This document shows, in pieces, positions 4,856 through 50,699 of a DNA stretch of 64,000 nucleotides (position 1 is the first letter of the stretch; every line of letters begins with the position of its first letter). The notes below the pieces were generated by a model. That model did no database searches, was not told where the DNA came from, and saw only the letters and a program-made list of their open reading frames with translations. Both the position numbers and the translations under genes were made by a program. The stretch covers positions 6,140 through 70,139 of the forward strand of contig MNRL01000010.1 in NCBI GenBank assembly GCA_001915925.1, read 5' to 3'. The DNA comes from Clostridium sp. CAG:354_28_25 (GTDB lineage Bacteria; Bacillota; Clostridia; TANB77; CAG-508).

Positions 4856-4883
4856 GGGATTTGGGGGACGATCCTAAAATCCC
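4856..4883. repeat. Intergenic GC-rich palindromic repeat unit (family copy a): GGGATTTGGGGGACGATCCTAAAATCCC
   Basis: Arms GGGATTT / AAATCCC are reverse complements around a GGGGACGRTCC core. Near-identical units recur at 8095, 11307, 25838-25936, 40231-40355 and 50629-50699. Confidence 0.7.
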
Positions 4884-4930
4884 TTTTTGAATTCACAAGG
4901 CAAACAAAAAGAGTAGGAGGGGTTTATAAT

Positions 4931-5884
4931 ATGATAAAACTATATAATACAAACTTGGAAACAAATAAACTAGAAAGTGTAGATACATATACAAGAGGAA
5001 CATGGATACATATGGTAGATCCTTCGGAAGAAGAAATAAAAGAAGTTTGCCAAAATGTTAATATAAAAGAAGATTTTATAAGATATGCACTAGATAATGA
5101 AGAAAAAGCCAGAATTGACGTAGAAGACGAAGATGACACAATATTATTCATTATAGACATACCAGTTACTGAGAAATCACAAAGTGGTGGATATATGTAT
5201 GCAACAATGCCTATAGGTATGATTGTAGTAAGAGATGATTTTTTCATAACAGTAACTTTAAGAGAATGTAGTTTAATAAAAAAATTTGAAACTGGAAAAG
5301 TAAAAAGTTTTTGTACATATAAAAAGAGTAGATTTATTTTACAAATGATGTATAACAATTCTTCAGATTATCTAGAATACCTAAAAAAGATTAATAAAGA
5401 AACAGAAATTGCAGAAAATGTATTAAAAAATTCCATGAAAAATAGAGAATTATTAAAATTACTAAGTTTAGAGAAATCTTTAGTATATATAACAACATCA
5501 TTAAGATCAAATGAAGCGGTTATGGAAAGAACTTTAAAAATAAAGAATATAAAATTATATGATGAAGATGAAGACATTTTAGAAGATGCAATAATAGAAA
5601 ATAAACAAGCTATAGAAATGAGTAAAGTGTATAGCGATATCTTAAATGGTACAATGGATGCATATGCTTCTATAATATCAAACAACTTAAATGGGGTTAT
5701 GAAATCATTAACTTCAATTACTATAATAATTGCAGTACCAACAATGATTGCAAGCTTTTGGGGGATGAATGTAAAATTACCGTTTGAGGGAAATATATTG
5801 GGATTCTGGATAATGATTTTTATAGCAACATTGCTTACTATTATTTCTGTAGTATGGTTAAAAAAGAAGGATATGCTAAATTAA
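4931..5884 (+). CDS. corA: Magnesium/cobalt transporter CorA
   Basis: RBS AGGAGGGG upstream of the ATG. C-terminal two-TM region contains the CorA signature F-W-GMN-V-KLP (ASFWGMNVKLPFEG). Acidic N-terminal cytoplasmic domain and length (317 aa) are typical. Confidence 0.85.
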   Translation: MIKLYNTNLETNKLESVDTYTRGTWIHMVDPSEEEIKEVCQNVNIKEDFIRYALDNEEKARIDVEDEDDTILFIIDIPVTEKSQSGGYMYATMPIGMIVVRDDFFITVTLRECSLIKKFETGKVKSFCTYKKSRFILQMMYNNSSDYLEYLKKINKETEIAENVLKNSMKNRELLKLLSLEKSLVYITTSLRSNEAVMERTLKIKNIKLYDEDEDILEDAIIENKQAIEMSKVYSDILNGTMDAYASIISNNLNGVMKSLTSITIIIAVPTMIASFWGMNVKLPFEGNILGFWIMIFIATLLTIISVVWLKKKDMLN

Positions 5885-5898
5885 TTTAAATAGCGGAC

Positions 5899-5929
5899 AC
5901 AAAATTTATAGTATAGGGGTAAATTTTGT
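5899..5929 (+). terminator. Possible weak terminator hairpin after corA
   Basis: ACAAAATTT-13 nt loop-AAATTTTGT perfect 9-bp AT-rich stem, followed by ATCTGCTTTTATT. Confidence 0.3.
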
Positions 5930-5974
5930 ATCTGCTTTTATTGATTTAATAATAAAATAAGAAGGAGAAAACAA

Positions 5975-6445
5975 ATGAAAAGTAATAAGTTAGATAAAGT
6001 ATATTTAGTAGTGTTTTTAATATTAGAATTTATAATATTTTTTGTGTTTAAATACTTTGATATTTCAGATATTAAAATATTTATAATTACACAACTAGTT
6101 TTTGTAATATTGTTTAGCATATTGTATTTCGTGATAACTTTATTTATAGAAAAACTAGCATCACGTAAGTTTTGCATAAAATATAATAAAATAATGAGAG
6201 AATATCAAAAAAGTGATAATGCTAAAATATTTTATGATAAGCTAAAAAATATGAAGGAAAAGCCTATAGGTGATGATATACAAAACACATACTTTTTAAG
6301 TTTAGCAACAGCAGCATATAAAAATGGAGAAAATGAAGAAGCACTAAAATATTTAGATATGATAAAAACAGACGATGTGCATATTTTAAAAGTAATAGAA
6401 GACGAAAGACAAACAATATTGGGAAAAGGTAAAAATAGAGCCTAA
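5975..6445 (+). CDS. Hypothetical small membrane protein (2 N-terminal TM helices, TPR-like C-terminal segment)
   Basis: RBS AAGGAGAAAAC upstream of the ATG. Hydrophobic N-terminal half (LVVFLILEFIIFFVF; LVFVILFSILYFVITLFI). C-terminal YFLSLATAAYKNGENEEALKYLDMIK looks TPR-like. Confidence 0.5.
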   Translation: MKSNKLDKVYLVVFLILEFIIFFVFKYFDISDIKIFIITQLVFVILFSILYFVITLFIEKLASRKFCIKYNKIMREYQKSDNAKIFYDKLKNMKEKPIGDDIQNTYFLSLATAAYKNGENEEALKYLDMIKTDDVHILKVIEDERQTILGKGKNRA

Positions 6446-6504
6446 AGTTGTAAAATTATAATAAATGGTATATAATAATGCAAGCTAAAAAAGGAGGAGA
6501 AAAT

Positions 6505-8088
6505 ATGTTATCTGTAAATGGTGTAACAGTGCGCTTTGGCAAAAGAATATTATTTGAAGATGTAAACATTAAATTTGGAAAAGGAAATTGCTATGGAATA
6601 ATTGGAGCAAATGGTGCAGGGAAATCTACATTTTTAAAAGTACTTTCTGGTGAACTAGAACCAAGCAAAGGAGATGTAACAGTAGATAAAGGAGAGAGAA
6701 TATCTATTTTAAAACAAGATCACTTTGCATATGACGAATATAATGTATTAGATGCTGTTATAATGGGGAACCAAGAATTATACAGTATTATGAAAGAAAA
6801 AGAAGAAATCTATGCTAAAGAAGATTTTTCAGAAGAAGATGGAATGAAAGCTGCGAAATTAGAAGAACGATTTGCAGAACTAGACGGCTGGAATGCGGAA
6901 ACAAATGCAGCAACTTTATTAAATGATTTAGGAATATCTCCAGAAAATCATTATAAACAAATGAAAGAAATTGAAGATAGGGAAAAGGTAAAGATATTAC
7001 TTGCACAAAGTTTATTTGGAAATCCAGATATATTATTATTAGACGAGCCTACAAACGATTTGGATTTAAAGACTATTCAATGGTTAGAAGAATTCTTAAT
7101 AAATTTTGAAAATACAGTAATTGTAGTATCACACGACAGATATTTCTTAAATAAAGTATGTACACATATCGCAGATGTGGATTTTGGGAAGATTAAAGTA
7201 TACCCAGGAAACTACGATTTCTGGTACGAATCTAGCCAGTTAGCATTAAAACAAATGAAAGATGCAAATAAGAAGAAAGAAGAAAAGATAAAAGAATTAC
7301 AAGAATTTATTGCACGTTTTAGTGCTAATGCATCTAAATCAAAACAAGCTACATCAAGAAAGAAATCGTTAGAAAAGATTCAATTAGACGAAATAAAGCC
7401 ATCAAATAGAAGATATCCATATATAGATTTTAAACCAGACAGGGAACCAGGAAAAGATATTTTAACAGTTAAGAATTTAAGTAAAACTGTAGATGGCGAG
7501 AAAGTATTAGATAATGTATCTTTTACAGTAAAAACAGATAATAAGATTGCTATAATTGCAGATAACGAAAATGCAAGAACAACATTGTTCCAAATACTTG
7601 CAGGAGAATTAGAGCCAGATGAAGGAGAAGTATCATTCGGGACAACTATAACTAAAGCATATTTCCCAAAAGATAATAGCTACTTGTTTACTCAAGATTT
7701 AAGTATAACAGACTGGCTAAGGCAATACTCTAAAGACCCAGACGAAACATATGTAAGAAGCTTTTTAGGTAGAATGTTATTCTCTGGTGATGAAGCATTA
7801 AAAAATGTAAAAGTTTTATCTGGAGGGGAAAAGGTAAGATGTGTATTATCTAAATTAATGTTATCAGGTGCAAACTTCTTGATTTTTGATGAACCAACAA
7901 ACCATTTAGATATGGAGAGTATTACTGCATTAAATGAAGGAATGGAAAGGTTTAAAGGAAATATGATATTTGCATCACATGACCATCAATTAATGCAAAC
8001 TGTAGCAAATAGAATAATAGATATTAAAAAAGACGGAAGCGTAGTAGACAAAGAATGTACTTATAACGAATACCTAGGCTTAGAATAG
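6505..8088 (+). CDS. ABC-F family ATPase (two fused ABC domains with inter-domain linker; EttA/YdiF/Uup-like translation factor)
   Basis: Two Walker A motifs (GANGAGKST; second domain IIADNENARTT), two signature/Walker B regions (LLLDEPTNDLD; LSGGEKVR...LIFDEPTNHLD) and a charged linker KKKEEKIKELQEFIARFSANASKSKQATSRKK. No TM domain. I prefer the ATG at 6505 (RBS AAGGAGGAG) over the ORF-track start at 6478. Confidence 0.85.
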   Translation: MLSVNGVTVRFGKRILFEDVNIKFGKGNCYGIIGANGAGKSTFLKVLSGELEPSKGDVTVDKGERISILKQDHFAYDEYNVLDAVIMGNQELYSIMKEKEEIYAKEDFSEEDGMKAAKLEERFAELDGWNAETNAATLLNDLGISPENHYKQMKEIEDREKVKILLAQSLFGNPDILLLDEPTNDLDLKTIQWLEEFLINFENTVIVVSHDRYFLNKVCTHIADVDFGKIKVYPGNYDFWYESSQLALKQMKDANKKKEEKIKELQEFIARFSANASKSKQATSRKKSLEKIQLDEIKPSNRRYPYIDFKPDREPGKDILTVKNLSKTVDGEKVLDNVSFTVKTDNKIAIIADNENARTTLFQILAGELEPDEGEVSFGTTITKAYFPKDNSYLFTQDLSITDWLRQYSKDPDETYVRSFLGRMLFSGDEALKNVKVLSGGEKVRCVLSKLMLSGANFLIFDEPTNHLDMESITALNEGMERFKGNMIFASHDHQLMQTVANRIIDIKKDGSVVDKECTYNEYLGLE

Positions 8089-8094
8089 AAAATA

Positions 8095-8121
8095 GGGATT
8101 TGGGGACGGTGCTAGAATCCC
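8095..8121. repeat. Intergenic palindromic repeat unit (copy b): GGGATTTGGGGACGGTGCTAGAATCCC, with a degenerate second copy at about 8127..8157
   Basis: Same family as 4856..4883. Starts 7 nt after the ABC-F stop codon. Confidence 0.65.
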
Positions 8122-8172
8122 AGTAAAAGGGAAAAGAGGGAGTTCTCTAAATCTCGGGGGAGATAAATTACT

Positions 8173-11278: not shown

Positions 11279-11306
11279 AACTATTTGATAAATTAAAAAC
11301 AAAATC

Positions 11307-11333
11307 GGGATTTAAGGACCGTCCCCAAATCCC
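11307..11333. repeat. Intergenic palindromic repeat unit (copy c, opposite orientation): GGGATTTAAGGACCGTCCCCAAATCCC
   Basis: Reverse-complement form of the family consensus, in the convergent tex / DUF975 intergenic region. Confidence 0.65.
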
Positions 11334-11359
11334 GAGAGACCAAAATTCCGAAGAAGAAT

Positions 11360-12292
11360 CTAATCTTTATTTTGGTCTAAATTTGGTATGTCTACTATTT
11401 CTGCTTTTACATCTTGAGAACCAGATTGTTCTTTTATTTCATTTGTTGTTGTATTTTCATCTGAGTTTTCTGTTGAATCTACAGTACCTTCGGCAACTGT
11501 AGCAGAACTATCTATACCAGCTCTATTTTCATAGAATACTATTGATGCAAACCCAATATATGGTGTTAATACAATAGTACCAGCGATTGCTGCTATCCAG
11601 CCAATAAAAGGTATTAAAGATACTACAACAGCTAGAGCAATCCATCCAATGAATGAAAGATATAGGCAGAATAAACGACCTTTATTTCCATCCATAAGTT
11701 CTTTACTTTTGTTAACACAATCAAGTGGTTTCATAGTTGGATTATCAATTGCAAGGTATATACCTAAACCATATGATAATGACTTCACGAAAAGCCATAT
11801 GTATGCAACAAGTACAACGATATATGCTATTATTGTTAAAGCACTAACACCAACTATAGCACCACCTAAAGTAGAAGTAGAAGTACTTATTCCTACTGCA
11901 AATGCAGTTGCAAAAGATGCGATAATAGAAACTACCATTATAATGATTGCAACTATTATTAATATTAGCGGAGCAATCATTTTTAAAAGTAATCTTCCTG
12001 TAAGGCACCAAGCTCTTTTAAAATTAGTAAAACCATCTTTAAAAAAATCAAAGTATCCTACACTTTCTCCTCTTTTTAGCTTCATCATAGTCATCATAAA
12101 ACCATATATTATTGGAATATCAATGACAATAGCAGCTATAGAAACTAAGAATCCTAAAAAAGGAATAGCAGAAAGTAATCCTACTAAAAATGAGTATCCT
12201 AAAAATATTAAGGTAATTAAAACCACAACTCCCCATTTACCTTTTAAAGATTCTCTGGCTTGCTTTCTTGTTTCTGAAGCAGTTAAAACCAT
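11360..12292 (-). CDS. DUF975-family polytopic membrane protein with acidic C-terminal tail
   Basis: N-terminus ...KQARESLKGKWGVVVLITLIFLGYSF... matches the DUF975 pattern (LKGNWG). Six or more hydrophobic helices. RBS AAGGAGGGG on the minus strand. Confidence 0.55.
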   Translation of the reverse strand: MVLTASETRKQARESLKGKWGVVVLITLIFLGYSFLVGLLSAIPFLGFLVSIAAIVIDIPIIYGFMMTMMKLKRGESVGYFDFFKDGFTNFKRAWCLTGRLLLKMIAPLILIIVAIIIMVVSIIASFATAFAVGISTSTSTLGGAIVGVSALTIIAYIVVLVAYIWLFVKSLSYGLGIYLAIDNPTMKPLDCVNKSKELMDGNKGRLFCLYLSFIGWIALAVVVSLIPFIGWIAAIAGTIVLTPYIGFASIVFYENRAGIDSSATVAEGTVDSTENSDENTTTNEIKEQSGSQDVKAEIVDIPNLDQNKD

Positions 12293-38400: not shown

Positions 38401-40231
38401 AAATGATACAGCATTAACAGGTAGAGAACCACAAGTAGATGTAACAAACTTAGCAGATGGAACATCTACAACAGCTACATATAATCATCCAAAAAATCCT
38501 ATAGATATGCAAAGAGGAGATATCGTAATATATACAATAAGAGTATATAATGAAGGTTCAATGGATGGATATGCAAATGAAATAACAGATTATTTACCAG
38601 AAGAATTAGAATTTTTACCAGACCATGAAATAAACCAAGAATATGAATGGCAAGTATCTAGTGATGGAAGACATGTTACAACAGATTATTTATCAAAAGC
38701 TAAAGAAACATCATCAAGACAAAACTTATTAAAAGCTTTTGATGGAACAACATTGGATTATAAAGATGTAAAGATAACATGTAAAATAAAAGATACTGCA
38801 GAAGTTGGTAAAAAGCTAACAAACTTAGCAGAAATAACAGAATCTAAAGATTCAGATGGAAATGATGTAGTAGACAGAGATTCTGAAACAGATAATGTAG
38901 AAGTACCAACAGACGAAGATTTACCAAATTATAAAGATGACGAAATAGATAAAGACTATGTACCTGGTCAAGAAGATGATGATGACTTCGAAAAGGTAAA
39001 AGTAGTATATTTCGATTTAGCATTAAGAAAATTTATAACAGCAGTAGATGATACAGAAATAACAAACAGAATACCACAACTAAGTATTGGTGAAGATGGA
39101 AATATAGATTATAATCATACAAAAGAGCCTGTAGAAGTAGAAAATGGTAATATAGTAACATATACATTAAGAATTTATAATGAAGGTATGATGGCAGGTT
39201 ATGCAAGCAGGGTAAAAGATGATGTGCCAGATGGATTGGAATTCTTGCCAGACAACGAGATAAACCAAGAATATAGATGGGTATTATCAGAAGATGGAAC
39301 AAGTATAGAGACCGATTATCTATCTAAAGAGCAAGAACAAACAGAAGGTGCAAACTTAATAAAAGCATTTGATCCAGAATTAGGAATAACGGATACAAAC
39401 CCAGACTATAGAGATTTAAAAATAGCATTTAGAGTAACAGAACCAAACACATCAGATAGAATATTAGTAAATACAGCAGAAATTTCAGATGACAGAGATG
39501 AAAACAATGATCCAGTAGACGATATAGATTCTACCCCAGATAACAATAACGAGTGGAACGAAGAAGATGATTTAGACAAAGAATTTGTAAAAGTTAAATA
39601 CTTTGATTTAGCATTAAAGAAATGGGTAAGTAGAGCAATTGTTACAAACCAAGATGGTTCACAAAACATAATAGAAACAGGACATACAGGAGATGAAGAT
39701 CCAGAGCCACCAGCAAAAGTAGATTTAGGAAGACAAGACATTAATAAAGTAACAGTAAAATTTGAATTCCAAATTAAAATAACAAATGAAGGTGAAATTG
39801 CTGGATATGCAACAGAAGTAACAGACTATATTCCAGAAGGCTTAAAGTTTATACAAGAAGACAACCCATTATGGTATCCAAGAGAACCATTAAACGGAAG
39901 AGAAAGAGTTGGAACACAACAATTAGCAGATACATTACTACAACCAGGAGAAAGCGCAACAATATCAATCCTATTAACATGGATAAATGATCCAAATAAT
40001 ATGGGATTAAAAACAAACATAGCAGAAATAAGCCAAGATGATAATGATAGTGATACACCAGATATAGACTCAACACCAGATAACTTTACAGATGGTGAAG
40101 ACGATATAGATGATGCACCAGTAATGTTAACAGTAGCACTAGGTGATACACAAATATATATAGGTTTAGGATTTGTAATAGTAGCAATGTTAACAGGTGG
40201 AATTTGGGCAATAAAAAGATATGTTTTATAG
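35456..40231 (+). CDS. Giant surface adhesin (1591 aa): signal peptide, N-terminal thioester-domain (TED)-like module, three tandem Cna B-type domains, four DUF11 repeats with acidic linkers, C-terminal TM anchor (KRYVL tail)
   Basis: Signal MKLLNKKLMLLMMGIIVMLLALLTGKVQA. Conserved Cys and Gln motifs TLYCLKAE and DVVQQLALWYFTN (see finding). Cna B repeats ...TITIEETQAPDGYEKVITAP.... DUF11 repeats YFDLALRKFIT...GD.V.YT..IYNEG...V.D.LP.GLEF. C-terminus LGFVIVAMLTGGIWAI-KRYVL. Confidence 0.75.
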   Translation: MKLLNKKLMLLMMGIIVMLLALLTGKVQAASQEFGLQEYRKPVGSTQYGYKVSDKYVWKIVTYSGSAINYDRTLYCLKAEQGFYTSEPGVFKETYNLSYDFMNKNSMNPLPVPSQYYNQIVWILNHSYIPSASTASTDKATLLQNAGISGNSELSDDDIDVVQQLALWYFTNYDDSTYHKDFENQASFQTVLQSTKTSGGTSAYQAIEDINQTRYDQMDKLFVYLVENAKKATASSNSTSSPIAMGNTTPTVEVSGSNYIVGPFKIDKNNDTPYTINFSITDQSGKSLAGKYTLLDSNKSQTSQTLAQLVGSNFYLRIPISTVNSENITSLRFSMNGNYTITTATYWTKSGDSTVQPIVELSRTPKAFSGNKEVTFPKEGSYNLKLIKVEQGNTTNKLQGATFRITSPNGTVTETTSSNGEINVGPITINTPGTDTITIEETQAPDGYEKVITAPINVQVTKTLSSNTYTMSNAVITNTQTGSSISVSGSTITVTVENKLIPKDSEYNLKLVKVEQGNTSKKLQGAEFRINSPTGEVTQTTNASGEINIGQIAVTATGTDTITIEETKAPDGYEKIITAPITVQVTKVFENNTYKMSTAQITNAQTGASLTLSGNTITVTVENKLIPKTSEYNLKLVKVEEGTSNKLEGAEFKINSPNGEVTKTTNASGEINIGPIAVTATGTDTITIEETKAPAGYEKIITAPITVQVTKVFENNTYKMSDAVITNAQNGADISLSGNTITVTVENKAKYFDLALRKYITQVNGENVANTRVPVIDTTSLTTGTTASYKHRKDPVAVTTGDKVIYNLTIYNEGQKPGRATKLQDQLPTGLVFNRVVSGNFELDSYSETDNLLKLRRTSNTDNLDAYNGTTLDSETIQIECTVTAVPTYKEQILTNVAWISEEYDAESNVTITNEENADRDSVPGTHPDVNKDNMEDYTGNNNQEDLTDDDYYFKGQEDDDDFEKLKVVYFDLALRKFITGKNDTALTGREPQVDVTNLADGTSTTATYNHPKNPIDMQRGDIVIYTIRVYNEGSMDGYANEITDYLPEELEFLPDHEINQEYEWQVSSDGRHVTTDYLSKAKETSSRQNLLKAFDGTTLDYKDVKITCKIKDTAEVGKKLTNLAEITESKDSDGNDVVDRDSETDNVEVPTDEDLPNYKDDEIDKDYVPGQEDDDDFEKVKVVYFDLALRKFITAVDDTEITNRIPQLSIGEDGNIDYNHTKEPVEVENGNIVTYTLRIYNEGMMAGYASRVKDDVPDGLEFLPDNEINQEYRWVLSEDGTSIETDYLSKEQEQTEGANLIKAFDPELGITDTNPDYRDLKIAFRVTEPNTSDRILVNTAEISDDRDENNDPVDDIDSTPDNNNEWNEEDDLDKEFVKVKYFDLALKKWVSRAIVTNQDGSQNIIETGHTGDEDPEPPAKVDLGRQDINKVTVKFEFQIKITNEGEIAGYATEVTDYIPEGLKFIQEDNPLWYPREPLNGRERVGTQQLADTLLQPGESATISILLTWINDPNNMGLKTNIAEISQDDNDSDTPDIDSTPDNFTDGEDDIDDAPVMLTVALGDTQIYIGLGFVIVAMLTGGIWAIKRYVL
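36596..37700 (+). repeat. Three in-frame tandem direct repeats of about 375 bp (125 aa Cna B-type domain) inside the adhesin gene
   Basis: Units start at about 36596, 36971 and 37346 (S/EYNLKL[IV]KVE[QE]G...TVENKLIPK). Units 2 and 3 are over 90% identical at the nucleotide level. Confidence 0.8.
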
Positions 40232-40281
40232 GGAATAAGGGACGTTCCTAAAATCCCGGGTAAACCGGGATTTTAGGAGTC
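40231..40281. repeat. Two adjacent palindromic repeat units (e1 40231-40257 GGGAATAAGGGACGTTCCTAAAATCCC; e2 40266-40281 GGGATTTTAGGAGTCC, truncated) forming a larger inverted structure around CCCGGGTAAACCGGG
   Basis: e1 starts on the last base of the adhesin stop codon. Confidence 0.65.
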
Positions 40282-40328: not shown

Positions 40329-40355
40329 GGGAAAAAAGGAACGTCCCCAAATCCC
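40329..40355. repeat. Palindromic repeat unit e3: GGGAAAAAAGGAACGTCCCCAAATCCC
   Basis: Nearly identical to unit f2 at 50673-50699 (GGGAAAAAAGGAATGTTCCCAAATCCC). Confidence 0.65.
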
Positions 40356-40514
40356 ACTAACCTCGAATTTTATAAAAAATTATTGTAAACTTAACAAAAA
40401 TGTAATATAATTGTAATGTGGACTAAAAAAATTGACGGAATATAGCAAAAACTGTATCCGTAAGCAGGTTCGAGCCACAAAAAAATAACCATAAAAAACT
40501 GCTATTTTTTGCTA

Positions 40515-40542
40515 TTGACTATTATTTAGAATATAGTAAAAT
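40515..40542 (+). promoter_or_regulatory. Putative promoter of the second adhesin gene (TTGACT-16 nt-TAAAAT)
   Basis: ttgact 40515-40520, taaaat 40537-40542. Confidence 0.4.
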
Positions 40543-40583
40543 ACACTTAGCAGTATTATGAGAAAAAGGATGGTAACGAAACT

Positions 40584-43500
40584 ATGAAACTTATTAAGAA
40601 AATAGCTGTAAGCATCATAGTTATGCTTTTAGCATTAGCTATGGGAACATCAGTATTTGCAGCTACAAATCCAGTTACATTTGGACTAAGTGAATATAGA
40701 AGAGAAACAAACGGAAAACAATATGGATATAGAATAAACAATGGAAATAAAAAAGTTTGGAAAGTTATTGTGTACGAAAATGACGGGACAACAATGAATT
40801 TTGACAATACAATATACTGTTTAAAAGCCGAAAAAGGTTTTTACACAGCAACACCAAATTCATTTAAACAAACATATGATAAAATGGTAGACTTTGCAGA
40901 TAAATCAAATTTAGTACCTGCAATTTTCGAAAACGATGACTATTATTATGCCGCTACATGGATTTTAGACCATGCATATATACCATATTATGCAAAATCA
41001 GGAGATTCAGTAGAAGTACAAGCTCAAAAAACTGAGCAAGCTGCACAAGATAGAGAAGATCTATTAAACGCATCTGGGATGAGCGATTCATTAAAACAAG
41101 AATTAACAGATGATGATATAGATGTAGTACAACAAATGGCATTATGGTATTTTACAAATACAAAAGCAAATGAGAATGCAGATATATATCATGTAGATTA
41201 TGCAGGAGAGCCATCATTCCAACCTGTAGCTATAGCTGAAAAAGGAGTAGGTTCTTATACAACAATAGAAGATGTTAACCAAACAAGAGCTGATGCAATG
41301 GAAAAACTATATCAATATATGGTAAAAACAGCTAAAAGTACAGAAAACATTGAATATTACAAAACACATAATGGAAAAGTAGAAGAACCAATAACATTAG
41401 CTACAGAAGTTAACCCAACAGTAGAATTAGATGGTGGAAATTATATAGTAGGACCATATAAAATAAATAAAAATAATGATTTACCATTCGAATTAAATGC
41501 AAAATTCACAGACCAAGATGGAACAGACTTAAATGGTAAATATACATTATTAAATTCAAGTAAACAAGCAGTATCACAAGGAACAACAATAAAAGATTTA
41601 GTAGGACAAAGTTTCTATATTTCAATCCCATCATCAAATATAGATGATATAACAAAAATAAAATTTAGTTATACAGGTTCATATAGAACTTCATCAAAAG
41701 GATTCTGGACAACAACACAAAATCCAGATACTGTACAACCATTAGTTGCAGTTGAAAAACAAGAAACTCCATTAAGTGGAGAAAAAGAAGTTGGAGTTGC
41801 AAAAAGAGAATTTGACTTATCATTAAGAAAATTTATTTCTGAAGTAAATGGAAAAGAAATAAATAGAGAGCCAACAGTAGATGTATCAAATTTAAATAAA
41901 AACATTGATGGAGCAAAAGTTACAACAGCTACTTATAACCATAACAAAAAACCAGTAGCAGTAAAACCAGGAGATATAGTTACATATACAATAAGAGTAT
42001 ATAATGAAGGTGAATTGGATGGTTATGTAGGAGAAATTACAGATTATTTACCAGCAGAATTAGAATTTATAAATGATGTAGAAAATTATCCAGAAGAAAC
42101 AGACTTTAATGCAGGTTATGGTTGGAAAATTGATGCAAGTAATAATAGAGTAATAAAAACAAATAAACTTGCTTACTCATCAGAAGCAGCAGACAGAGAT
42201 CAAAATGCAAGCAATTTAATAAAAGCATATAATGGAACAACATTAGATTACAAAGAAGTTAAAGTAAAATGTAAAGTAAAGAACTCTACAGAATCATTAA
42301 AGAAGATTACAAATTTAGCTCAAATTACACAAGAAACAGACAGTAAAGGTGGAGCAGTAACAGATAGGGACTCTGTACCAAATGGAAACTTTACATTACC
42401 ATCAGATACAGATTTACCAACATATAAAGATGACGAAATAAATTCTGGAAAACAATATATACCAGGACAAGAAGATGATGATGATTTTGAAAAAGTTATT
42501 ATTCAAGAATTTGATTTAGCATTAAGAAAATTTATATCAGGAAAAAATGGAACAACATTAATAGGTAGAGAGCCATCTGTAGATGTAACAAATTTAGCAA
42601 ATGGAACAGCTACAACAGCAACATATAATCATCCAAAGAAAGCTGTGGATATGGCAAGAGGAGATGTTGTAGAATACACAATAAGAGTATATAATGAAGG
42701 CTCAATAGATGGATATGCAAATAAAATAGTAGATAAATTACCAGCAGAATTAGAGTTCTTACCAGAAAACGAAACAAATATACAATATGGATGGCAAGTT
42801 TCAGAAGATGGAAGAACAGTAACAACAGATTATTTATCAGAAGCAAGAGGAGGCATTCCAGTTTCTACAGCAACAACTTCAAATCAAAATTTAATAAAAG
42901 CATTTGATGGAACAACATTATCATATAAAGATGTAAAAATAGTATGTAAAGTAAAAGATACTGCAGAATTTGGTAAGAAATTAACAAATTTAGCAGAGAT
43001 AACAGAAGCAAAAGATTCTGAAGGAAATGATGTAATAGATAGAGATTCTGAAACAAATAATATGCAAGTTCCAAGTGATGAAGACTTACCAGCATATAAA
43101 GATGACGAAATAAACAACGAATATGTACCAGGACAAGAAGACGATGATGACTTCGAAAAAGTTAGAGTAGTATATTTTGACTTAGCATTAAGAAAATTTA
43201 TTACTGCAGTTGATGACCAAGAAGTAACTACGAGAGTTCCACAATTAAGTATTGGAGAAGATGGAAATATTAAATATGACCATACAAAAGATCCTGTTGA
43301 AGTAGAAAACGGAGATGTAGTTACATATACAATAAGAATATATAATGAAGGATTAATAGATGGACATGCAACAGAAGTAAAAGATGATATTCCAGATGGA
43401 CTAAAATTCTTACCAGATAACCCTATAAATAGAGAGTATAGATGGCAAGAATCGGAAGATGGACAAAGTGTAACAACAGATTACTTAGCTAAGGCACAAG

Positions 43501-44396
43501 AAGAAAATGACGGAGATAATCTAATAAAAGCATATGACCCAGAAAAAGGACTAACAGAAAACAATCCTGATTACAGAGATGTAAAAATCGCATTCCAAGT
43601 AACAGAACCAAATACATCAGATAGAATATTAGTAAATACAGCAGAAATTGCTGATGATAGTGATAGTTCTGGGGATCCAATTGAGGATATAGATTCTACT
43701 CCAGATAACAACAATGAGTGGAACGAAGAAGACGACTTAGATAAAGAATTTGTAAAAGTTAAATACTTCGATTTAGCCCTAAAAAAATGGGTAAGTAAAG
43801 CAATCATAATAGATGCAGACGGAACACAGACTGTACAAGAAACAGGACATACAGGTGACGAAGATCCAGAACCACCAGCAAAAGTAGATTTAGGAAGAAG
43901 AGATATAAACAAAGTAACAGTAAAATTCGAATTCCAAATCAAAATAACAAACGAAGGTGAAATCGCTGGATATGCAAAAGAAATAACAGATTATATCCCA
44001 GAAGGTTTAAGATTTGTACAAGAAGATAACCCGGATTGGTATACAAGAGAGCCTTTAAATGGTAAAGAAAGAGTTGCAACAAAATTATTAGAAAATACAT
44101 TATTACAACCAGGAGAAAGTGCAACAGTATCAATCATCTTAACATGGATAAATGGACAAGATAATATGGGCTTAAAAACAAATATTGCAGAAATAAGCCA
44201 AGATTATAATGATAGTCATACACCAGACATAGACTCTGTGCCAGACAACTTTAAAGAAGATGAAGATGATATAGATGATGCTCCAGTAATGCTTACAGTA
44301 GCACTAGGTGATGCAAAATTATATATCGGAATAGCAACACTAGTAGTTATAGCACTAGGTGGAGGAGTATTCATAATTAAGAAATATGTAATTTAA
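40584..44396 (+). CDS. Paralogous giant surface adhesin (1270 aa): signal peptide, TED-like N-terminal module, four DUF11 repeats, C-terminal TM anchor (KKYVI tail). No Cna B tandem array.
   Basis: Signal MKLIKKIAVSIIVMLLALAMGTSVFA. Motifs TIYCLKAE and DVVQQMALWYFTN. The 3' ~1.9 kb is about 85-90% identical to the 3' end of the 35456..40231 gene. Confidence 0.75.
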   Translation: MKLIKKIAVSIIVMLLALAMGTSVFAATNPVTFGLSEYRRETNGKQYGYRINNGNKKVWKVIVYENDGTTMNFDNTIYCLKAEKGFYTATPNSFKQTYDKMVDFADKSNLVPAIFENDDYYYAATWILDHAYIPYYAKSGDSVEVQAQKTEQAAQDREDLLNASGMSDSLKQELTDDDIDVVQQMALWYFTNTKANENADIYHVDYAGEPSFQPVAIAEKGVGSYTTIEDVNQTRADAMEKLYQYMVKTAKSTENIEYYKTHNGKVEEPITLATEVNPTVELDGGNYIVGPYKINKNNDLPFELNAKFTDQDGTDLNGKYTLLNSSKQAVSQGTTIKDLVGQSFYISIPSSNIDDITKIKFSYTGSYRTSSKGFWTTTQNPDTVQPLVAVEKQETPLSGEKEVGVAKREFDLSLRKFISEVNGKEINREPTVDVSNLNKNIDGAKVTTATYNHNKKPVAVKPGDIVTYTIRVYNEGELDGYVGEITDYLPAELEFINDVENYPEETDFNAGYGWKIDASNNRVIKTNKLAYSSEAADRDQNASNLIKAYNGTTLDYKEVKVKCKVKNSTESLKKITNLAQITQETDSKGGAVTDRDSVPNGNFTLPSDTDLPTYKDDEINSGKQYIPGQEDDDDFEKVIIQEFDLALRKFISGKNGTTLIGREPSVDVTNLANGTATTATYNHPKKAVDMARGDVVEYTIRVYNEGSIDGYANKIVDKLPAELEFLPENETNIQYGWQVSEDGRTVTTDYLSEARGGIPVSTATTSNQNLIKAFDGTTLSYKDVKIVCKVKDTAEFGKKLTNLAEITEAKDSEGNDVIDRDSETNNMQVPSDEDLPAYKDDEINNEYVPGQEDDDDFEKVRVVYFDLALRKFITAVDDQEVTTRVPQLSIGEDGNIKYDHTKDPVEVENGDVVTYTIRIYNEGLIDGHATEVKDDIPDGLKFLPDNPINREYRWQESEDGQSVTTDYLAKAQEENDGDNLIKAYDPEKGLTENNPDYRDVKIAFQVTEPNTSDRILVNTAEIADDSDSSGDPIEDIDSTPDNNNEWNEEDDLDKEFVKVKYFDLALKKWVSKAIIIDADGTQTVQETGHTGDEDPEPPAKVDLGRRDINKVTVKFEFQIKITNEGEIAGYAKEITDYIPEGLRFVQEDNPDWYTREPLNGKERVATKLLENTLLQPGESATVSIILTWINGQDNMGLKTNIAEISQDYNDSHTPDIDSVPDNFKEDEDDIDDAPVMLTVALGDAKLYIGIATLVVIALGGGVFIIKKYVI

Positions 44397-44860: not shown

Positions 44861-45703
44861 ATGGAAGAAAATAAAACATTAGAAGAAGTATGTACTGAAT
44901 ATAAGCTTTCAGAAGACGAACGCAACGAAATAGGAAACAAAATAAATGCGATTATGTTAGCAGGAAAGAAAACAAGTGAGCAACCTATAGCAATAATAGA
45001 TATTGCACCTCCAGGTTCTGGAAAAACAGGTTTAAACGGATATGCCTGTGCACAGTTTAAGGATAATAATGCTGTTGTCATTAATAGTGATGAATTAAAA
45101 CCATTTCATCCTAGAATAGATGAATTAGCAAAAAAATATCCAGAATATTATACAAAAGTAACTAATCAAGAAAGTAATTTTTGGACAGACAATTTATTTG
45201 ATGTTGCAGTAGCTAGTAGGTATAATGTTATTTTTGAGGGAACAGGTAGAAACTTAAAACTATTAACAAAGATGATGAGCAAAATGCATGGGTACAAAAT
45301 AGTTGTAAGAGGAATGGCCGTTAATGAACTAAATTGCTTGATGTCAATAATTGAAAGATATGAAGGACAAGTAGAACAAAAAGGCTGGGGAAGGTTGGTA
45401 ATGGAAGATCATTTTTATAAAGCATATGATGAAATGCTAGAAAATATCCAAGCGATTGAAGAATCTGGAATGGCAGATATTGTTGAAGTTTATACAAGAA
45501 GTGACAATCCAAGTAGACCACTAAGAATATATAGTAGTAGAAATAGAGAATTTAAAGATGCAAGAACAGCTGTAATTGTTGGAAGAGAAAGAGACAGAAA
45601 AAGTGCAGAACAATATTATGAAGAAAAATTTAGTAAAAGAGGAACAAAACCAACAAAGTTTCCAGAAGAAAAAGAACTTCTAGAAAAAATAACAGAAATA
45701 TGA
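44861..45703 (+). CDS. Zeta-toxin family P-loop kinase (PezT/zeta-like; the family phosphorylates UDP-GlcNAc)
   Basis: Walker A IAPPGSGKTGL. Blocks VINSDELKPFHP (zeta VIDNDTFKQQHP), NVIFEGTGRN (NLVIEGTGRT), GYKIVVRGMAVNELNCLMSIIERYE ([25 protein letters not shown]). Confidence 0.75.
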   Translation: MEENKTLEEVCTEYKLSEDERNEIGNKINAIMLAGKKTSEQPIAIIDIAPPGSGKTGLNGYACAQFKDNNAVVINSDELKPFHPRIDELAKKYPEYYTKVTNQESNFWTDNLFDVAVASRYNVIFEGTGRNLKLLTKMMSKMHGYKIVVRGMAVNELNCLMSIIERYEGQVEQKGWGRLVMEDHFYKAYDEMLENIQAIEESGMADIVEVYTRSDNPSRPLRIYSSRNREFKDARTAVIVGRERDRKSAEQYYEEKFSKRGTKPTKFPEEKELLEKITEI

Positions 45704-45744
45704 GAACAAGGAATACAATTATAAATTTGAATAGAGGGATGATT

Positions 45745-46767
45745 ATGAACGAATCAAAAACAATAAAAGATGTTGTGGAAGAGGTAGAAAAATCTTCAAC
45801 AACCTTTGAAAAAACAAATACTGACTTAAAAAGAAAATTTTTAAAATGGAATATAGAAGCATTTAATATGATTGCTTCTTCAGTAAGTGTAAATAGAGGC
45901 TCATTTGGAACTGGCTATCCATTTTATGTATTGGATGAAAATTTAAATGGAGAAATTCCAATTATTTCGGAACAAATTAGATATAACAGGCAATTAGTAA
46001 GAGATGGGGAGCCTGTACAAAAATCCATATGGCAGTGTAAATCTTGTCTAGAAAGAAATTATGATATAATGCCAGATTTAAAAATAGTATGTAAACCATG
46101 CCAAAATATGATAGATTCATTAAAGCCAAGAAAAATTATAAACAGATTACCTGACTTAGACATGTGGTTAGTTTGTGAGGACGGAAGTATTGAACAAGCA
46201 CAAGCTGAATTAAGCAAATTACTAGAGAAATATAATATGCGTACATCAGATGTTTCTCCATTACAATCTTTAAGTGATGTTGTGAAAATTTCAACAAATT
46301 TAAAAGACGGAGAATTTCCAAAAGTATTTTTGCCAATAGATGCACATATTATGGAAAAATCAAAATTGATGGAACTAGTAGAACAAGTACCAGATGAATT
46401 ACAATTAGCAAAACTAGAAGAAAGAAAACCATATTTACCAATTAGACCAAAATCACTTAGAAAAGAATGGCAATATGATGACGAGGCATATAACTTTATT
46501 TATGATTATCTTTCAGCTTTTACAGCATTTAACTTTACAGAAGGAATGGAAGAAACACTACAAAAGAGCAGAACTAGAGTAATAAGAGAAAATACGCCAG
46601 AAGAATTGTTCGATTTTCTTACGCAAGCAGCAACTCCAGCAAACTTTAGAAGATTTCAGGAACATGAATTAGAAGAAATTTTTTATAGAAGAATAACAGG
46701 ATGGGGCGAGCAACTAACAAAGGAAAGAGGAGAATTAGAAGAAGACGAGGGACCTGAACTTGAATAA
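45745..46767 (+). CDS. Hypothetical protein with CxxC...CxxC zinc-ribbon (CKSC...CKPC) and an acidic C-terminus. Translationally coupled to the zeta-like gene.
   Basis: The ORF-track start at 45700 overlaps the zeta stop (ATGA). The internal ATG at 45745 has RBS GAGGG 6 nt upstream, so the true start is uncertain. No confident domain match. Confidence 0.5.
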   Translation: MNESKTIKDVVEEVEKSSTTFEKTNTDLKRKFLKWNIEAFNMIASSVSVNRGSFGTGYPFYVLDENLNGEIPIISEQIRYNRQLVRDGEPVQKSIWQCKSCLERNYDIMPDLKIVCKPCQNMIDSLKPRKIINRLPDLDMWLVCEDGSIEQAQAELSKLLEKYNMRTSDVSPLQSLSDVVKISTNLKDGEFPKVFLPIDAHIMEKSKLMELVEQVPDELQLAKLEERKPYLPIRPKSLRKEWQYDDEAYNFIYDYLSAFTAFNFTEGMEETLQKSRTRVIRENTPEELFDFLTQAATPANFRRFQEHELEEIFYRRITGWGEQLTKERGELEEDEGPELE

Positions 46768-47815: not shown

Positions 47816-47853
47816 ATATTAATATAATAAGTTATTATAGGAGAAATAGGTGT

Positions 47854-48462: not shown

Positions 48463-48483
48463 AGACAAGTAATAATAAAATAT

Positions 48484-48545
48484 AAAGCATCAATTGAAAT
48501 GCAAACTTTTAGTTAAAGAAGGCATTCAATGGATGCTTTTATAAT
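48484..48545 (+). terminator. Terminator-like long hairpin
   Basis: AAAGCATCAATTGAAATGC ... GCATTCAATGGATGCTTT imperfect 18-bp stem followed by TT. Confidence 0.4.
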
Positions 48546-48552
48546 ATTGAAA

Positions 48553-48655
48553 TTATTTTGATACAGCAAAAAATGTTAAAGGAAGAAAATTATTTCGATA
48601 CAACGAAAAAAATGTCAAAAAAAGAAAGTTATTTCGATACATCGAAATAACTTGA
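48553..48655. repeat. Three tandem ~35-bp direct repeats (TTATTT[CT]GATACANCGAAAAAAATGTNAAA...). The last contains a perfect 10-bp-arm palindrome TTATTTCGAT-ac-ATCGAAATAA just upstream of the AAA ATPase gene.
   Basis: Read directly. Units start at about 48553, 48590 and 48630. Confidence 0.6.
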
Positions 48656-48698
48656 AAAAATAAAATAATCTGTTATAATTAAATTAGAGGTGAAAACT

Positions 48699-49895
48699 AT
48701 GTTAAAAAGAGAATATTATTTAAAAAGAATAAGACCATTTTATCAAGAAAATAGTTTAATTAAAATAATATATGGTTTAAGAAGAGCTGGTAAATCAGTA
48801 ATATTAAATCAAATTAAGGATGAATTACTAAAAGATAAAACTGATGAAAGCCATATTATATATATAAATTTTGAATCGTTAGATTACAGTTTTATAAAAA
48901 ATGCAATAGATTTAAATAATTATATAAAACAACAAATTAAAGATAATAAAACATACTATATATTTTTAGACGAAATACAAAAAGTAAAAGATTTTGAAAA
49001 AGGAATAAATTCACTTCGTATAACGAATCAATGTAGTATTTTTATAACTGGTTCAAACAGCAAGATGACATTTAAAGAACTTTCAACTGACTTAACAGGT
49101 AGATATGTTAGTTTTAAAGTAAATCCACTGAACTTTTCTGAAGCACTAGAAATAACAAATACAAATGATTATAAAAAATTATTGTTTGATATTTTTGAAT
49201 GGGGAAGCTTACCACAAAGGTTTTCATTTAAAGAGGATATTACTAAATTAAATTATATATCAGATGTATATGATTCTATTGTTTTAAAGGACGTTGTAGA
49301 GAGATTGGGAGTAAAAGATATTACTTTATTTAATAAAGTATGGCAATATATTTTAGAAACTGAAGGAAGAGAATTTTCTGCAACTAATGTCTTGAAATAT
49401 TTAAAAAATGAATATAGAGAAGTATCTGCAGAAACTTTATATAACTATATAGAAGCATTATGTTCGACTTTTATTATTAACAAAGTATACAGATATGATA
49501 TACATGGTAAAAGTATTTTAAAAACATTAAATAAATATTATGTATCAGATCTTGGAGTGAAAAAGATAAAAAATACAAATAAAGAAACTAATTATTCAAT
49601 TTGTTTAGAGAATTTGGTATATAATGAATTAATTTTTAAAGGATATGATGTTTATATAGGAAAATTAAAAGATGCAGAAGTCGATTTTGTAGCTATAAAA
49701 GATAAAAAGATTAAGTATATTCAAGTAAGCTTATATTTAAATTCCGAAGAAACAATAAATAGGGAATTTGGAGCATATAAGAGTATACAAGACAATTATC
49801 CCAAATATGTAATATCTTTAGATGATGTGGATATGTCAACTAATGGAATAAAGCATTTGAATGTTTTTGACTTTTTGTTAAATGAAGATTTTTAA
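48699..49895 (+). CDS. AAA+ ATPase of the COG1373 / AAA_14-DUF4143 family
   Basis: N-terminal P-loop IIYGLRRAGKSVILNQI, Walker B YIFLDEIQ, then the DUF4143-type C-terminal half. RBS GAGG 9 nt upstream of the ATG at 48699. The ORF track starts at the GTG at 48690. Confidence 0.8.
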   Translation: MLKREYYLKRIRPFYQENSLIKIIYGLRRAGKSVILNQIKDELLKDKTDESHIIYINFESLDYSFIKNAIDLNNYIKQQIKDNKTYYIFLDEIQKVKDFEKGINSLRITNQCSIFITGSNSKMTFKELSTDLTGRYVSFKVNPLNFSEALEITNTNDYKKLLFDIFEWGSLPQRFSFKEDITKLNYISDVYDSIVLKDVVERLGVKDITLFNKVWQYILETEGREFSATNVLKYLKNEYREVSAETLYNYIEALCSTFIINKVYRYDIHGKSILKTLNKYYVSDLGVKKIKNTNKETNYSICLENLVYNELIFKGYDVYIGKLKDAEVDFVAIKDKKIKYIQVSLYLNSEETINREFGAYKSIQDNYPKYVISLDDVDMSTNGIKHLNVFDFLLNEDF

Positions 49896-49948
49896 AGTCA
49901 AAAATTGCACAACAAAGTAGTCAAAAAATGCACAATGCTATTGGATGA

Positions 49949-50218
49949 ATGAAAATGTATACAATGTCTTTATATGAATCTGGAGATTCATCAGGAGAGG
50001 CTTCTTTAAAAGATTTATTTGAAAATAAAGTGAAAAAAAAGCTCGTAAAAAAGGTAGAGTTAAAAAGATTAGCGGAACTGATTGTAAAAGGTGGTTGGCC
50101 TGAAGCAGTAAATATTAGTGTTAATGGAGCTATGAAAATTACTAGAAGTTATATTGAGGCTGTACTAGATAAAGATATTATAGAGATTGATGGAGTAAAT
50201 AGAGATAAGCAAAAGTAG
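49949..50218 (+). pseudogene. Internal fragment of a second COG1373-type ATPase paralog (lacks P-loop and C-terminus)
   Basis: 89-aa ORF. ...LVKKVELKRLAELIVKGGWPEAVNI...SYIEAVLDKDIIEIDGVNRDKQK aligns to the middle of the 48699 protein (WGSLPQRF...VYDSIVLKDVVERLGVKDITLFNK). Confidence 0.4.
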
Positions 50219-50544
50219 GAGATGAATATGACATAAAAGCAAAAGAGTTCTTAAGTTATAAACTAGTAGAAGCAGATGAAGAAGAAAACAGCATGTTACC
50301 AACAAATGCAGCAGGAACGATGACAGAAGAGAAAATAGTAGTAAACTACTACTATAAGCAACCAGCAAAAGTAATAGTACACTATGTAGAAAAAGCAACA
50401 GGAAAAGAAATAGAGGAAATAAATCCAGAAACAGGAGAATTACCAATAGGATTAATACTTGTATTAGTTGCATTAGTAGGATTAGAGACAGTAACATTAA
50501 GATATGCAGTAGTATTTACTAAAAGGCAAAAAAATAAGAAATAA
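50209..50544 (+). pseudogene. 3' fragment of a surface-protein gene (end of a Cna B-like domain plus C-terminal anchor); no 5' part
   Basis: Open frame begins right after a stop at 50206 (...EYDIKAKEFLSYKLVEADEEENSMLPTNAAGTMTEEKIVVNYYYKQPAKVIVHYVEK...). Ends ETGELPIGLILVLVALVGLETVTLRYAVVFTKRQKNKK, about 93% identical at the nucleotide level to 48346..48462. Confidence 0.45.
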
Positions 50545-50550
50545 CTAAAA

Positions 50551-50596
50551 AACAGCATCTTAAGATTGTAAAAATTAAAAGGTGCTGTTTTTTTAT
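50551..50596 (+). terminator. Rho-independent terminator
   Basis: AACAGCATC-21 nt loop-GGTGCTGTT followed by TTTTTT. Confidence 0.5.
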
Positions 50597-50628
50597 GTAA
50601 AAACTAATTATACCAAAAATAGAAAATC

Positions 50629-50699
50629 GGGATTTTAGGAACGTCCCCAAACCCCTCCCCAAATCCCTCTTCGGGAAAAAAGGAATGTTCCCAAATCCC
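50629..50699. repeat. Two palindromic repeat units (f1 50629-50667 GGGATTTTAGGAACGTCCCCAAA[CCCCTCCCCAAA]TCCC with internal duplication; f2 50673-50699 GGGAAAAAAGGAATGTTCCCAAATCCC) upstream of the giant Fn3 protein gene
   Basis: Same family as 4856, 8095, 11307, 25838 and 40231. Confidence 0.65.

Follow-up and report, generated by a model that had tools for sequence, protein, structure and literature searches.

A 64,000-nt stretch of DNA from Clostridium sp. CAG:354_28_25 (contig MNRL01000010.1, positions 6,140 to 70,139 of the forward strand), hereafter called the window, carries short GC-rich palindromes between its genes. These palindromes form a genuine repeat family that is dispersed in uncultured gut Clostridia, and the units of the window are probably repetitive extragenic palindromic (REP) type repeats of a Y1 (HuH) tyrosine transposase of the RAYT/TIRYT type that belongs to a clade of low-GC gut Clostridia. 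This reading is carried by the association of the repeats with the transposase gene in related genomes, by their polarity, by a conserved core that is enclosed by covarying arms, and by the absence of target duplications. In the following, L-numbers designate related loci or contigs that were compared with the window and P-numbers designate homologous proteins. The orientation of a unit is called A for the strand that reads the consensus GGGATTTGGGGACGKTCCTWAAATCCC.

The transposase gene and its flanking repeats

The first-pass annotation of the window had envisaged a cognate binding protein or a tyrosine recombinase for the palindromes, and a Y1 tyrosine transposase whose gene is flanked by the repeats was found in related genomes. 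A scan of all open reading frames (ORFs) in the fetched loci for the HuH motif found the first candidate in L015, a truncated ORF of 144 aa with 'REP-associated tyrosine transposase' as its best NCBIfam match (E 1.5e-20, 73.6 bits) and only 19 bits on the IS200 model; a perfect unit is located 205 nt upstream of it. In the alignment, its homologs of approximately 210-270 aa share an invariant HxH, a YIHxNPVKAG motif and a conserved C-terminal tail that resembles a helix-turn-helix (HTH). P0012 passes the HTH_24 and HTH_11 models, and P0022 gives weak matches to sigma-70 region 4. The homologs pass the Pfam model Y1_Tnp, and their sole match in the PDB was 4ER8, the TnpA-REP of E. coli. For all proteins scored, the RAYT model (NCBIfam NF047646, REP_Tyr_transpos; cut-off 80 bits) was the best by far, as compared to about 20 bits for the IS200 model.

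Repeats and transposase gene were found together on one contig in L015, L009, L133, L128 and L139. The order holB, PSP1, Fer4, unit and transposase gene is kept in seven loci from different species (L015, L117, L128-L131 and L133), and this conserved neighbourhood would suit a resident, vertically inherited transposase gene. In L015, L115, L116 and L117 an A-oriented unit is located between a small ferredoxin gene and the transposase gene. As a separate observation, a small winged-helix-like ORF with weak PadR and AraR_C matches follows the transposase gene in L116 (1252-1566) and in L159 (approximately 920-1240), in both lineages within the repeat-bounded segment.

The flanks of the gene were analysed on a larger scale by a metagenome scan, which returned at least 497 relatives of the transposase; 80 loci were retained. 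In the 400 nt upstream of the gene the core GGGAC[GA] was present in forward direction in 52 of 65 evaluable loci and in reverse direction in 5 of them. Within 400 nt downstream, the reverse core was present in 47 of 52 loci and the forward core in 4. The core occurred on both sides of the gene in 34 of 48 loci, and the chance rate of the core in such AT-rich DNA was estimated at about 0.03 per 400 nt. The units in the flanks are composed of a 5′ arm, 0-3 nt, GGGAC[GA], 5-9 nt and a complementary 3′ arm. The arms came in more than 40 sequences, which vary among lineages yet remain complementary; the arm pairs are, by lineage, TAGACA/TGTCTA, CTGCCA/TGGCAG, TGAACACTT/AAGTGTTCA, TGATCCTTTTT/AAAAAGGATCA and GGGTGTTTTT/AAAAACACCC, with GGGATTT/AAATCCC in the clade of the window. 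A perfect stem of at least 6 bp encloses the core in 50 of 91 distinct units, as opposed to a mean of 9.6 and a maximum of 18 units in the arm-swapped control. Such a covariation of the arms between lineages around a fixed asymmetric core can be read as the signature of a hairpin. The covariation of the stem within the family of the window was also considered as structural support and was discarded as too weak, convincing covariation being seen only between lineages.

Units of the window type flank the transposase gene in L128/L129 (2713 on the + strand and 3880/3936 on the − strand), in L131 (2870 + and 3837 −) and in L116 (76 + and about 1645 −, 1.5 kb apart). In these loci each flank is a block of two units, and the same block makes up the ends of the elements resembling miniature inverted-repeat transposable elements (MITEs) described below. 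Moreover, L133 carries a dispersed doublet with a layout identical to that of its own transposase flank, and further dispersed copies of the own flank type are located on the same contig in both L133 and L139. Apart from this, tandem arrays of the same core, with 5-9 units and a period of 25-29 nt, are present in another human-gut lineage (L141-L148), where they are located on both sides of the transposase gene and also farther off (L143, 3754-3856 and 5226-5356). In L128 a unit with other arms, TGTCAAAA...TTTTGACA around GGGACG, was found at 6350-6400 in addition to the GGGAT-type transposase flanks, which suggests from the letters that two REP families may coexist in one organism.

Units in the window, repeat anatomy and distribution

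In the window the consensus pattern was matched five times with at most 3 mismatches, as opposed to 0 matches in 100 dinucleotide-preserving shuffles. An nhmmer profile built from the visible copies found nine full units and one partial unit with E<0.01. All units are intergenic and are spread over six intergenic regions. These are the same six regions that had been named in the first-pass annotation, and its count of at least 13 units is to be corrected to 10 solid units and 3 remnants, as only degenerate fragments outside profile significance are present at 8127, 40266 and about 50656. The GC content of the window is 24-33% and the units therefore stand out as GC islands, as had been noted before. 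The close vicinity of some units to stop codons was likewise borne out: at 40231 and 25936 the G with which the unit begins is also the third base of a TAG stop codon, and the unit at 8095 is 6 nt away from a stop codon.

The first unit (4856..4883, + strand, 28 nt with one extra G) reads GGGATTTGGGGGACGATCCTAAAATCCC followed by TTTTTG and scores 24.3 bits; it is located 93 nt past the stop codon of an SdrD/SpaA surface-protein gene (843-4763), directly behind an ordinary terminator-like hairpin (about 4820-4845), and folds as DNA with −7.7 kcal/mol (z −2.9). The unit at 8095..8121 (+ strand, GGGATTTGGGGACGGTGCTAGAATCCC, 24.7 bits) begins 6 nt past the stop codon of an ABC-F gene (6478-8088) and has a weakened stem (z −1.4). 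Together with a degenerate inverted partner at 8127..8153 (− strand; GGGAAAAGAGGGAGTTCTCTAAATCTC on the + strand), which was recognised by eye and is not significant in the profile, it forms a decayed convergent doublet. The best-preserved unit (11307..11333, − strand, 28.3 bits) reads GGGATTTGGGGACGGTCCTTAAATCCC on the − strand, followed by TTTTGTTTTT. It is located 26 nt past the stop codon of a DUF975 gene (11360-12292, − strand), folds as DNA with −10.5 kcal/mol (z −4.2) and was flagged as terminator-like due to a 14-pair stem with a T tail.

In the fourth region a partial unit (25839..25861, + strand, GGAATTGGGGACGGTCCCAAAAG, 12.9 bits, E 0.008) is arranged in tandem with a unit of 28 nt (25863..25890, + strand, GGGATTTGGGGGACGGTCCTAAAATCCC, 25.1 bits, z −2.4). 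The latter is antisense to the flanking − strand genes and is the inverted partner of the unit at 25910..25936 (− strand; GGGATTTAGGGACGGTGTTCCTTTCCC on the − strand, 17.6 bits, z −0.9), which has no AAATCCC arm and overlaps, by its first G, with the last base of the TAG stop codon of a G5/glucosaminidase gene (25936-27429). The unit at 40231..40257 (+ strand, GGGAATAAGGGACGTTCCTAAAATCCC, 22.9 bits) is conserved in L102 and L002, and its first G doubles as the final base of the TAG stop codon of a TED/SpaA/DUF11 surface-protein gene (35456-40231). Its AAATCCC arm and an inverted GGGATTT fragment together form a terminator-like hairpin at 40244..40280 (+ strand; TAAAATCCCGG gtaaa CCGGGATTTTA, followed by CCTTTTTG). 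The inverted partner at 40329..40355 (− strand; GGGATTTGGGGACGTTCCTTTTTTCCC on the − strand, 22.4 bits, z −2.3) completes a convergent, REPIN-like doublet. In the last region the unit at 50629..50655 (− strand; GGGGTTTGGGGACGTTCCTAAAATCCC on the − strand, 27.0 bits) is located directly after an ordinary terminator (about 50552-50595) and upstream of a gene for a protein of 1817 aa. It is arranged in tandem with a variant at 50673..50699 (− strand; GGGATTTGGGAACATTCCTTTTTTCCC on the − strand, 19.4 bits, z −0.8), and a unit fragment that was found by eye and is not significant in the profile lies between the two copies (50656..50667, − strand; CCCCAAATCCC on the + strand). In total, the window holds the doublets 25863/25910 and 40231/40329 and the tandem runs 25839/25863 and 50629/50673.

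Each unit had been expected to form a hairpin with a 7-bp stem. This was borne out only in part: the units at 4856, 11307, 25863 and 40329 fold better as DNA than their shuffles (z −2.3 to −4.2), but those at 8095, 25910, 40231, 50629 and 50673 do not (z > −1.4). In the units at 25910, 40329 and 50673 the 7-bp stem cannot close, because T-rich or other sequence replaces the AAATCCC arm. A search of the window against Rfam 15 at the gathering threshold gave 0 matches, and the sole Rfam match in seven related loci was a tRNA; a match to a known riboswitch or terminator class, which would have spoken against the first-pass reading, was thus not found. No tRNAs were found in the window. A reading of the repeats as CRISPR was rejected, as regular unique spacers are not present.

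The anatomy of the repeat was derived from an alignment of 170 copies with their flanks. Its modules are a (GGGATTT), a′ (AAATCCC, the complement of a) and b (GGGGACGKTCC), which are arranged as a-b-a′ in the 27-mer, as tandem a-b-a-b-...-a′ with a period of approximately 21-26 nt, or as longer palindromes. A position matrix of the 87 best copies extends the unit by t-a in front and by T-a-T-T-t-t behind. TA is enriched on either side of the 27-mer (36% and 38%), and the other flank pair is TC...GA. As judged from the alignment, the TA...TA or TC...GA flanks would lengthen the palindrome rather than mark a duplication. The two half-sites of the unit differ consistently (TTTGGGGAC vs TTTWAGGAC). 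In the window-type family G9.T19 is invariant and G8.T20 is common, and therefore the RNA hairpin is stronger on the A strand (−11.9 vs −9.8 kcal/mol).

In some species the units are part of hairpin or MITE-like elements of 125-460 bp with inverted ends of 60-95 bp, each end being composed of two successive units. At the five long elements inspected (L084, L032, L037, L077 and L068) no target-site duplication was found. Elements of about 310-460 bp were recorded in L084 (166-475), L032 (4352-4715), L108 (1-170), L093 (several) and L037 (1150-1595). They share a non-coding interior. The assemblies CALXAB and CALXXK contain them in multiple copies, and several contigs break off within such an element.

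A species scan with the pattern GGGACGDTCCTWWWWTCCC, in which one genome per GTDB species was used, returned at least 109 stretches. At least 28 low-GC species-level assemblies, labelled as uncultured Clostridia or Clostridium sp., carry the exact core pattern, with at least 27 units in 15 blocks in the assembly USBY01. High-GC taxa gave chance-like single matches to the same pattern. The palindromes are accordingly not confined to the window, and the proposal of a family instead of a local duplication proved correct. Contigs identical or nearly identical to the window originate from human-gut metagenomes. Two isolated matches in a scan of phage contigs were located on contigs of 41-54% GC and were treated as chance. 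The supposed enrichment around surface-protein genes was not supported: in other genomes the same units adjoin tRNA synthetase, NUDIX, YqeY, ACPS and similar genes. The window itself contains rpoB, rpoC, Gram-positive surface proteins and similar genes.

Among the close relatives L001-L003 the unit regions examined show no differences, L001 being 100% identical overall. In the 92.6%-identical relative L102 the first unit (40231) is kept and the segment of the second unit (40329) is rearranged, which by sequence comparison points to fast turnover and not to transposition. Adjoining this rearranged segment, the leader and promoter of the second surface-protein gene (about 40375-40583) are 100% identical in L102, in comparison to about 92% in the adjacent coding DNA; this is unusually conserved non-coding DNA without an Rfam match. 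The orthologous site following the gene for a response regulator with an HD domain carries three different forms of the element in L076, L108 and L052 and none in the window, the synteny at this site being different.

Several further observations were made in the window. L102, which is 92.6-98% identical, cleanly lacks the 1,604-bp segment 44558-46161 (junction gattttttgat/gtggttag). Its content is an ORF of 75 aa, a gene for a Zeta_toxin (44861-45703, 112 bits) and the 5′ portion of the ORF 45700-46767; the segment looks like a toxin-antitoxin indel between close relatives. The TED/SpaA/DUF11 paralogs 35456-40231 and 40584-44396 are 81% identical over 1.87 kb (38320-40164 vs 42464-44329), and in the strain variant L002 the TED/SpaA/DUF11 protein has 1467 aa instead of 1591 aa via a change in the number of internal repeats. 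A protein resembling a single-module nonribosomal peptide synthetase (15528-19805, − strand) has the architecture C-A-T-R, i.e. Condensation, AMP-binding, PP-binding and a terminal NAD_binding_4 reductase, and the neighbours of its gene (13493-15559 and 12337-13365) encode a histidine kinase and a response regulator with an HD domain.

Genomic position, polarity and alternative explanations

The genomic position of the repeats was analysed for 148 non-redundant copies with longest-ORF calls on all low-GC loci. Only 6 of these copies are located inside ORFs and approximately 6 between divergent genes. Units follow the stop codon at a median distance of 9 nt, with an overlap between the two in about 20 copies. 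Singlets between co-directional genes are in sense orientation in 41 and in antisense orientation in 13 cases, and the spacers with two units between co-directional genes comprise 12 convergent ('><') and 0 divergent ('<>') arrangements. This polarity may be due to transcription, to single-strand transposition at the replication fork, or to both. The copies that follow the strand of the gene but not the local GC skew number 14 and the reverse case 2, which is suggestive only.

The same data bear on the explanation that ranks next, namely that the units are primarily intrinsic terminators of the host or RNA hairpins that stabilise 3′ ends, kept behind genes by selection, with only an incidental link to the transposase. 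In favour of it, 92 copies are sense to the upstream gene vs 44 antisense at the short median distance mentioned above, T follows the A orientation at positions +30 to +33 in 82%, 71%, 60% and 55% of the copies, and the invariant G9.T19 and frequent G8.T20 make the hairpin stronger on the sense RNA, by the energies given above. Additionally, the unit at 11305-11335 and the hairpin at 40244-40280 pass a terminator scan, and in L076 and L052 the palindrome is the entire spacer between convergent genes. However, only two of the six window regions look terminator-like, others failing the scan, and the T-rich tail is not rarer behind antisense copies (25/35) than behind sense copies (32/63) and is therefore part of the repeat and not selected by context. 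The units at 4856, 11307 and 50629 adjoin ordinary terminators, the unit at 8095 is without a T tract, with the next gene about 50 nt behind it, and several copies are unable to fold. The inverted flanking of a Y1 transposase gene in 34 of 48 loci would also be left unexplained. We consider this explanation unlikely.

Less probable still is a role of the units as double-stranded binding sites, be it for a regulator or nucleoid protein of the host, for the HTH of the transposase or for the adjacent winged-helix ORF. The near-palindromic sequence, the tandem copies with a period of about 21-26 nt, the HTH on the transposase and the winged-helix-like ORF behind its gene in L116 and L159 would fit such sites. 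Nevertheless, a symmetric duplex site predicts neither half-sites that are consistently unlike (TTTGGGGAC vs TTTWAGGAC) nor a biased orientation; the copies are located at the 3′ ends of genes and not at promoters, with the few copies in divergent regions noted above, and their arms covary lineage by lineage around a fixed asymmetric core.

The least probable explanation, that the units are ends or remnants of MITEs moved by a classical DDE transposase, e.g. of the IS630/Tc1 type with TA duplication, could draw on the long forms with terminal inverted repeats, a non-coding interior and multiple copies per genome and on the TA enrichment at both sides of the 27-mer, but TA is present on both sides in 19 of 104 copies vs about 14 expected from the single-side frequencies, the alternative TC...GA flanks indicate an extension of the palindrome instead of a duplication, no direct duplication was seen at the five long elements inspected, no DDE transposase was found between inverted pairs, where the enclosed ORFs are all housekeeping, and the repeats flank the gene of a Y1 enzyme. 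A transposon between the '+...-' pairs had also been considered as a candidate and was rejected, the enclosed ORFs being TyrRS, ProRS, YqeY, NUDIX, ACPS, DinB-like and RecD2.

Several points weigh against the assignment of the window units to the RAYT/TIRYT-type transposase. The proteins score 63-82 bits on the RAYT model, six of the seven being below the cut-off of 80 bits and only P0022 passing it. The 64-kb window itself is without a transposase gene; a tblastn search over the blocks of the first scan gave homologs only in L015 and L009 among the matches listed; L022 has the downstream synteny but not the gene; and in L115 the transposase is a pseudogene (1661-1990) with in-frame stops after 91 codons, the unit upstream of it being intact (1434-1460). 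Because of the missing gene in the window and in L022 and the pseudogene in L115, the window units could be relics. About half of the window copies no longer fold, and the stem of the window type is almost without compensatory changes, most changes being disruptive. A terminal GTAG is not present in the position matrix (flanks t-a and T-a-TTTT), the conserved motif being the internal GGGAC[GA]. Gene direction cannot be separated from the leading strand in these genomes, and the orientation bias is therefore assignable neither to replication nor to transcription. Finally, a clean empty-site polymorphism was not found in the comparison with L001-L003 and L102, and mobility is for this reason inferred and not observed.

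For the REP-type repeats and their transposase a mechanism can be proposed by analogy with the IS200/IS605 TnpA and the E. coli TnpA-REP, in part on the basis of PMC6006769. The top strand, when transiently single-stranded, would fold into a hairpin in which GGGATTT and AAATCCC pair as the outer stem and the GGGACG core occupies the loop or an inner stem. The transposase would bind this hairpin, read the GGGACG core, and cut and rejoin the DNA nearby via its catalytic tyrosine. In this way singlets or inverted doublets would be copied to new sites, with the transposase gene itself remaining single-copy at a fixed chromosomal place, and selection would keep only the insertions at harmless places, immediately after stop codons. 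Transcribed sense copies could additionally form an RNA hairpin ahead of a U-rich tract (−11.9 kcal/mol, the sense strand being the only one with G.U pairs), and some of them are predicted to act, probably, as terminators or as protectors of 3′ ends. This role cannot be general, because the units often adjoin ordinary terminators, some have no T tract and half of those in the window do not fold any more.

Relation to known repeat-transposase systems

The resemblance to REP elements that had been proposed for the palindromes was confirmed and was made specific by the RAYT/TIRYT-type transposase that these repeats flank. BOX elements are defined by a composite boxA/boxB/boxC layout. Such a layout was not seen here, and the proposed likeness to BOX elements was dropped in a comparison of layouts rather than of sequences. 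The statement that the motif matches no element that can be named is fair for the exact sequence, but the class has been described (PMC3733652, PMC6006769).

The reference systems for REP/REPIN-RAYT are those of Enterobacteria and Pseudomonas (Bertels and Rainey 2011, PMC3116915; Bertels et al. 2017, PMC5581495). As in REPs, bacterial interspersed mosaic elements (BIMEs) and REPINs, the repeats of the clade are imperfect palindromes of 20-40 nt that are extragenic, mostly located behind genes, and arranged as singlets, inverted doublets and clusters. In related contigs the gene of a cognate Y1 transposase carries the same repeats on its flanks, and its conserved chromosomal position in several species suggests vertical inheritance. 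In contrast to these systems, GGGAC[GA] is located inside the hairpin next to the 5′ arm and a 5′ GTAG tag is not present; moreover, the transposase has an HTH tail and scores mostly slightly below the NCBIfam RAYT cut-off. Group 1 RAYTs are 'also found in the Clostridia', and abundant REP 16-mers were tied only to Groups 2 and 3 (PMC5581495).

The closest description is that of the TIRYT genes by Di Nocera, De Gregorio and Rocco 2013 (PMC3733652), a text in which neither 'Clostrid' nor 'Firmicutes' occurs. TIRYT genes are RAYT-like and flanked by inverted repeats that share GGGGWSAS, and some of these repeats are dispersed as dimers and clusters (PMC3733652). TIRYTs have been equated with the TnpA-Y1 subclass 2.1, which has long proteins with a C-terminal HTH (PMC6006769), and the TIRYTs of the TIRtron repeats probably correspond to this subclass. 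The clade likewise has a Y1 HuH protein that is homologous to TnpA-REP, longer and equipped with a C-terminal HTH; its gene is flanked by inverted repeats with a G-rich motif near GGGGWSAS, and single, dimeric and clustered copies of the flanking repeat are dispersed in the genome as well. The commonest core octamers in the clade are GGGGACGT, GGGGACGG, GGGGACAC and GGGGACAG. As differences, the cores are strictly GGGGWSAS in 22 of 149 and GGGGWSRN in 76 of 149 cases, with G being more frequent than A at position 7, and the flanks of the clade are clear hairpin units with lineage-specific complementary arms around an internal core. The host is an uncultured Gram-positive gut clade. In subclass 2.1 reportedly no REP-like sequences were found beside the genes (Quentin, Siguier, Chandler and Fichant 2018, PMC6006769), whereas hairpin repeats flank the gene here.

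Two further systems are more distant. The CGTC-tagged REPs are also short palindromes behind genes, and the reverse complement of the clade core, CGTCCC, contains CGTC. However, their tag is located at the end of an 8-9-bp stem with loops of 4-5 nt and a CCA tail, and they are reported to have no dedicated transposase (PMC3733652), whereas the motif of the clade is within the hairpin and a transposase is associated. With the IS200/IS605 family the repeats of the clade share the Y1 HuH chemistry, subterminal hairpins, strand polarity and the lack of target duplication. Here, too, there are differences: the protein of the clade reaches about 20 bits on the IS200 model vs 63-82 bits on the RAYT model, and its gene appears at one conserved locus and not in several copies, without tnpB. 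A classical IS200/IS605 TnpA with 153 bits on the IS200 model was recorded separately in L028 (4960-5511, − strand; assembly CALXAB) and is distinct from the RAYT-like family.

Taken together, the family is a REP/REPIN-like population in an uncultured Gram-positive gut clade, its class and general behaviour being already established. The tentative further claim, which we regard as rather doubtful, is that it would be the first clear REPIN-like population tied to the HTH-bearing TIRYT/subclass 2.1 branch and the first in a Gram-positive lineage. Work on REP/REPIN-RAYT systems has dealt almost exclusively with Proteobacteria, and for the HTH-bearing relatives of TnpA-REP (TIRYT, subclass 2.1) the link to dispersed repeats was described as weak or absent. 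In practical terms, the units break assemblies, several contigs ending in a unit. They are located on stop codons, and they may be mistaken for terminators or regulatory RNAs in the annotation of metagenome-assembled genomes. With more than 40 arm variants and one fixed core in many uncultured gut Clostridia, the repeats constitute a natural covariation series, which indicates the part of the hairpin that is likely read by the enzyme and makes the recognition rule directly testable; together with the Gram-positive host, this series would be of interest to specialists of REPINs and of Y1 transposases. If the further claim is true, GGGAC[GA] inside a hairpin with arms free to vary would be a third REP architecture beside GTAG and CGTC, and the TIRYT/subclass 2.1 branch, which was thought to be without REPs, would drive abundant hairpin repeats. 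The repeats in this clade would then have been co-opted as terminators or 3′-end structures that abut stop codons.

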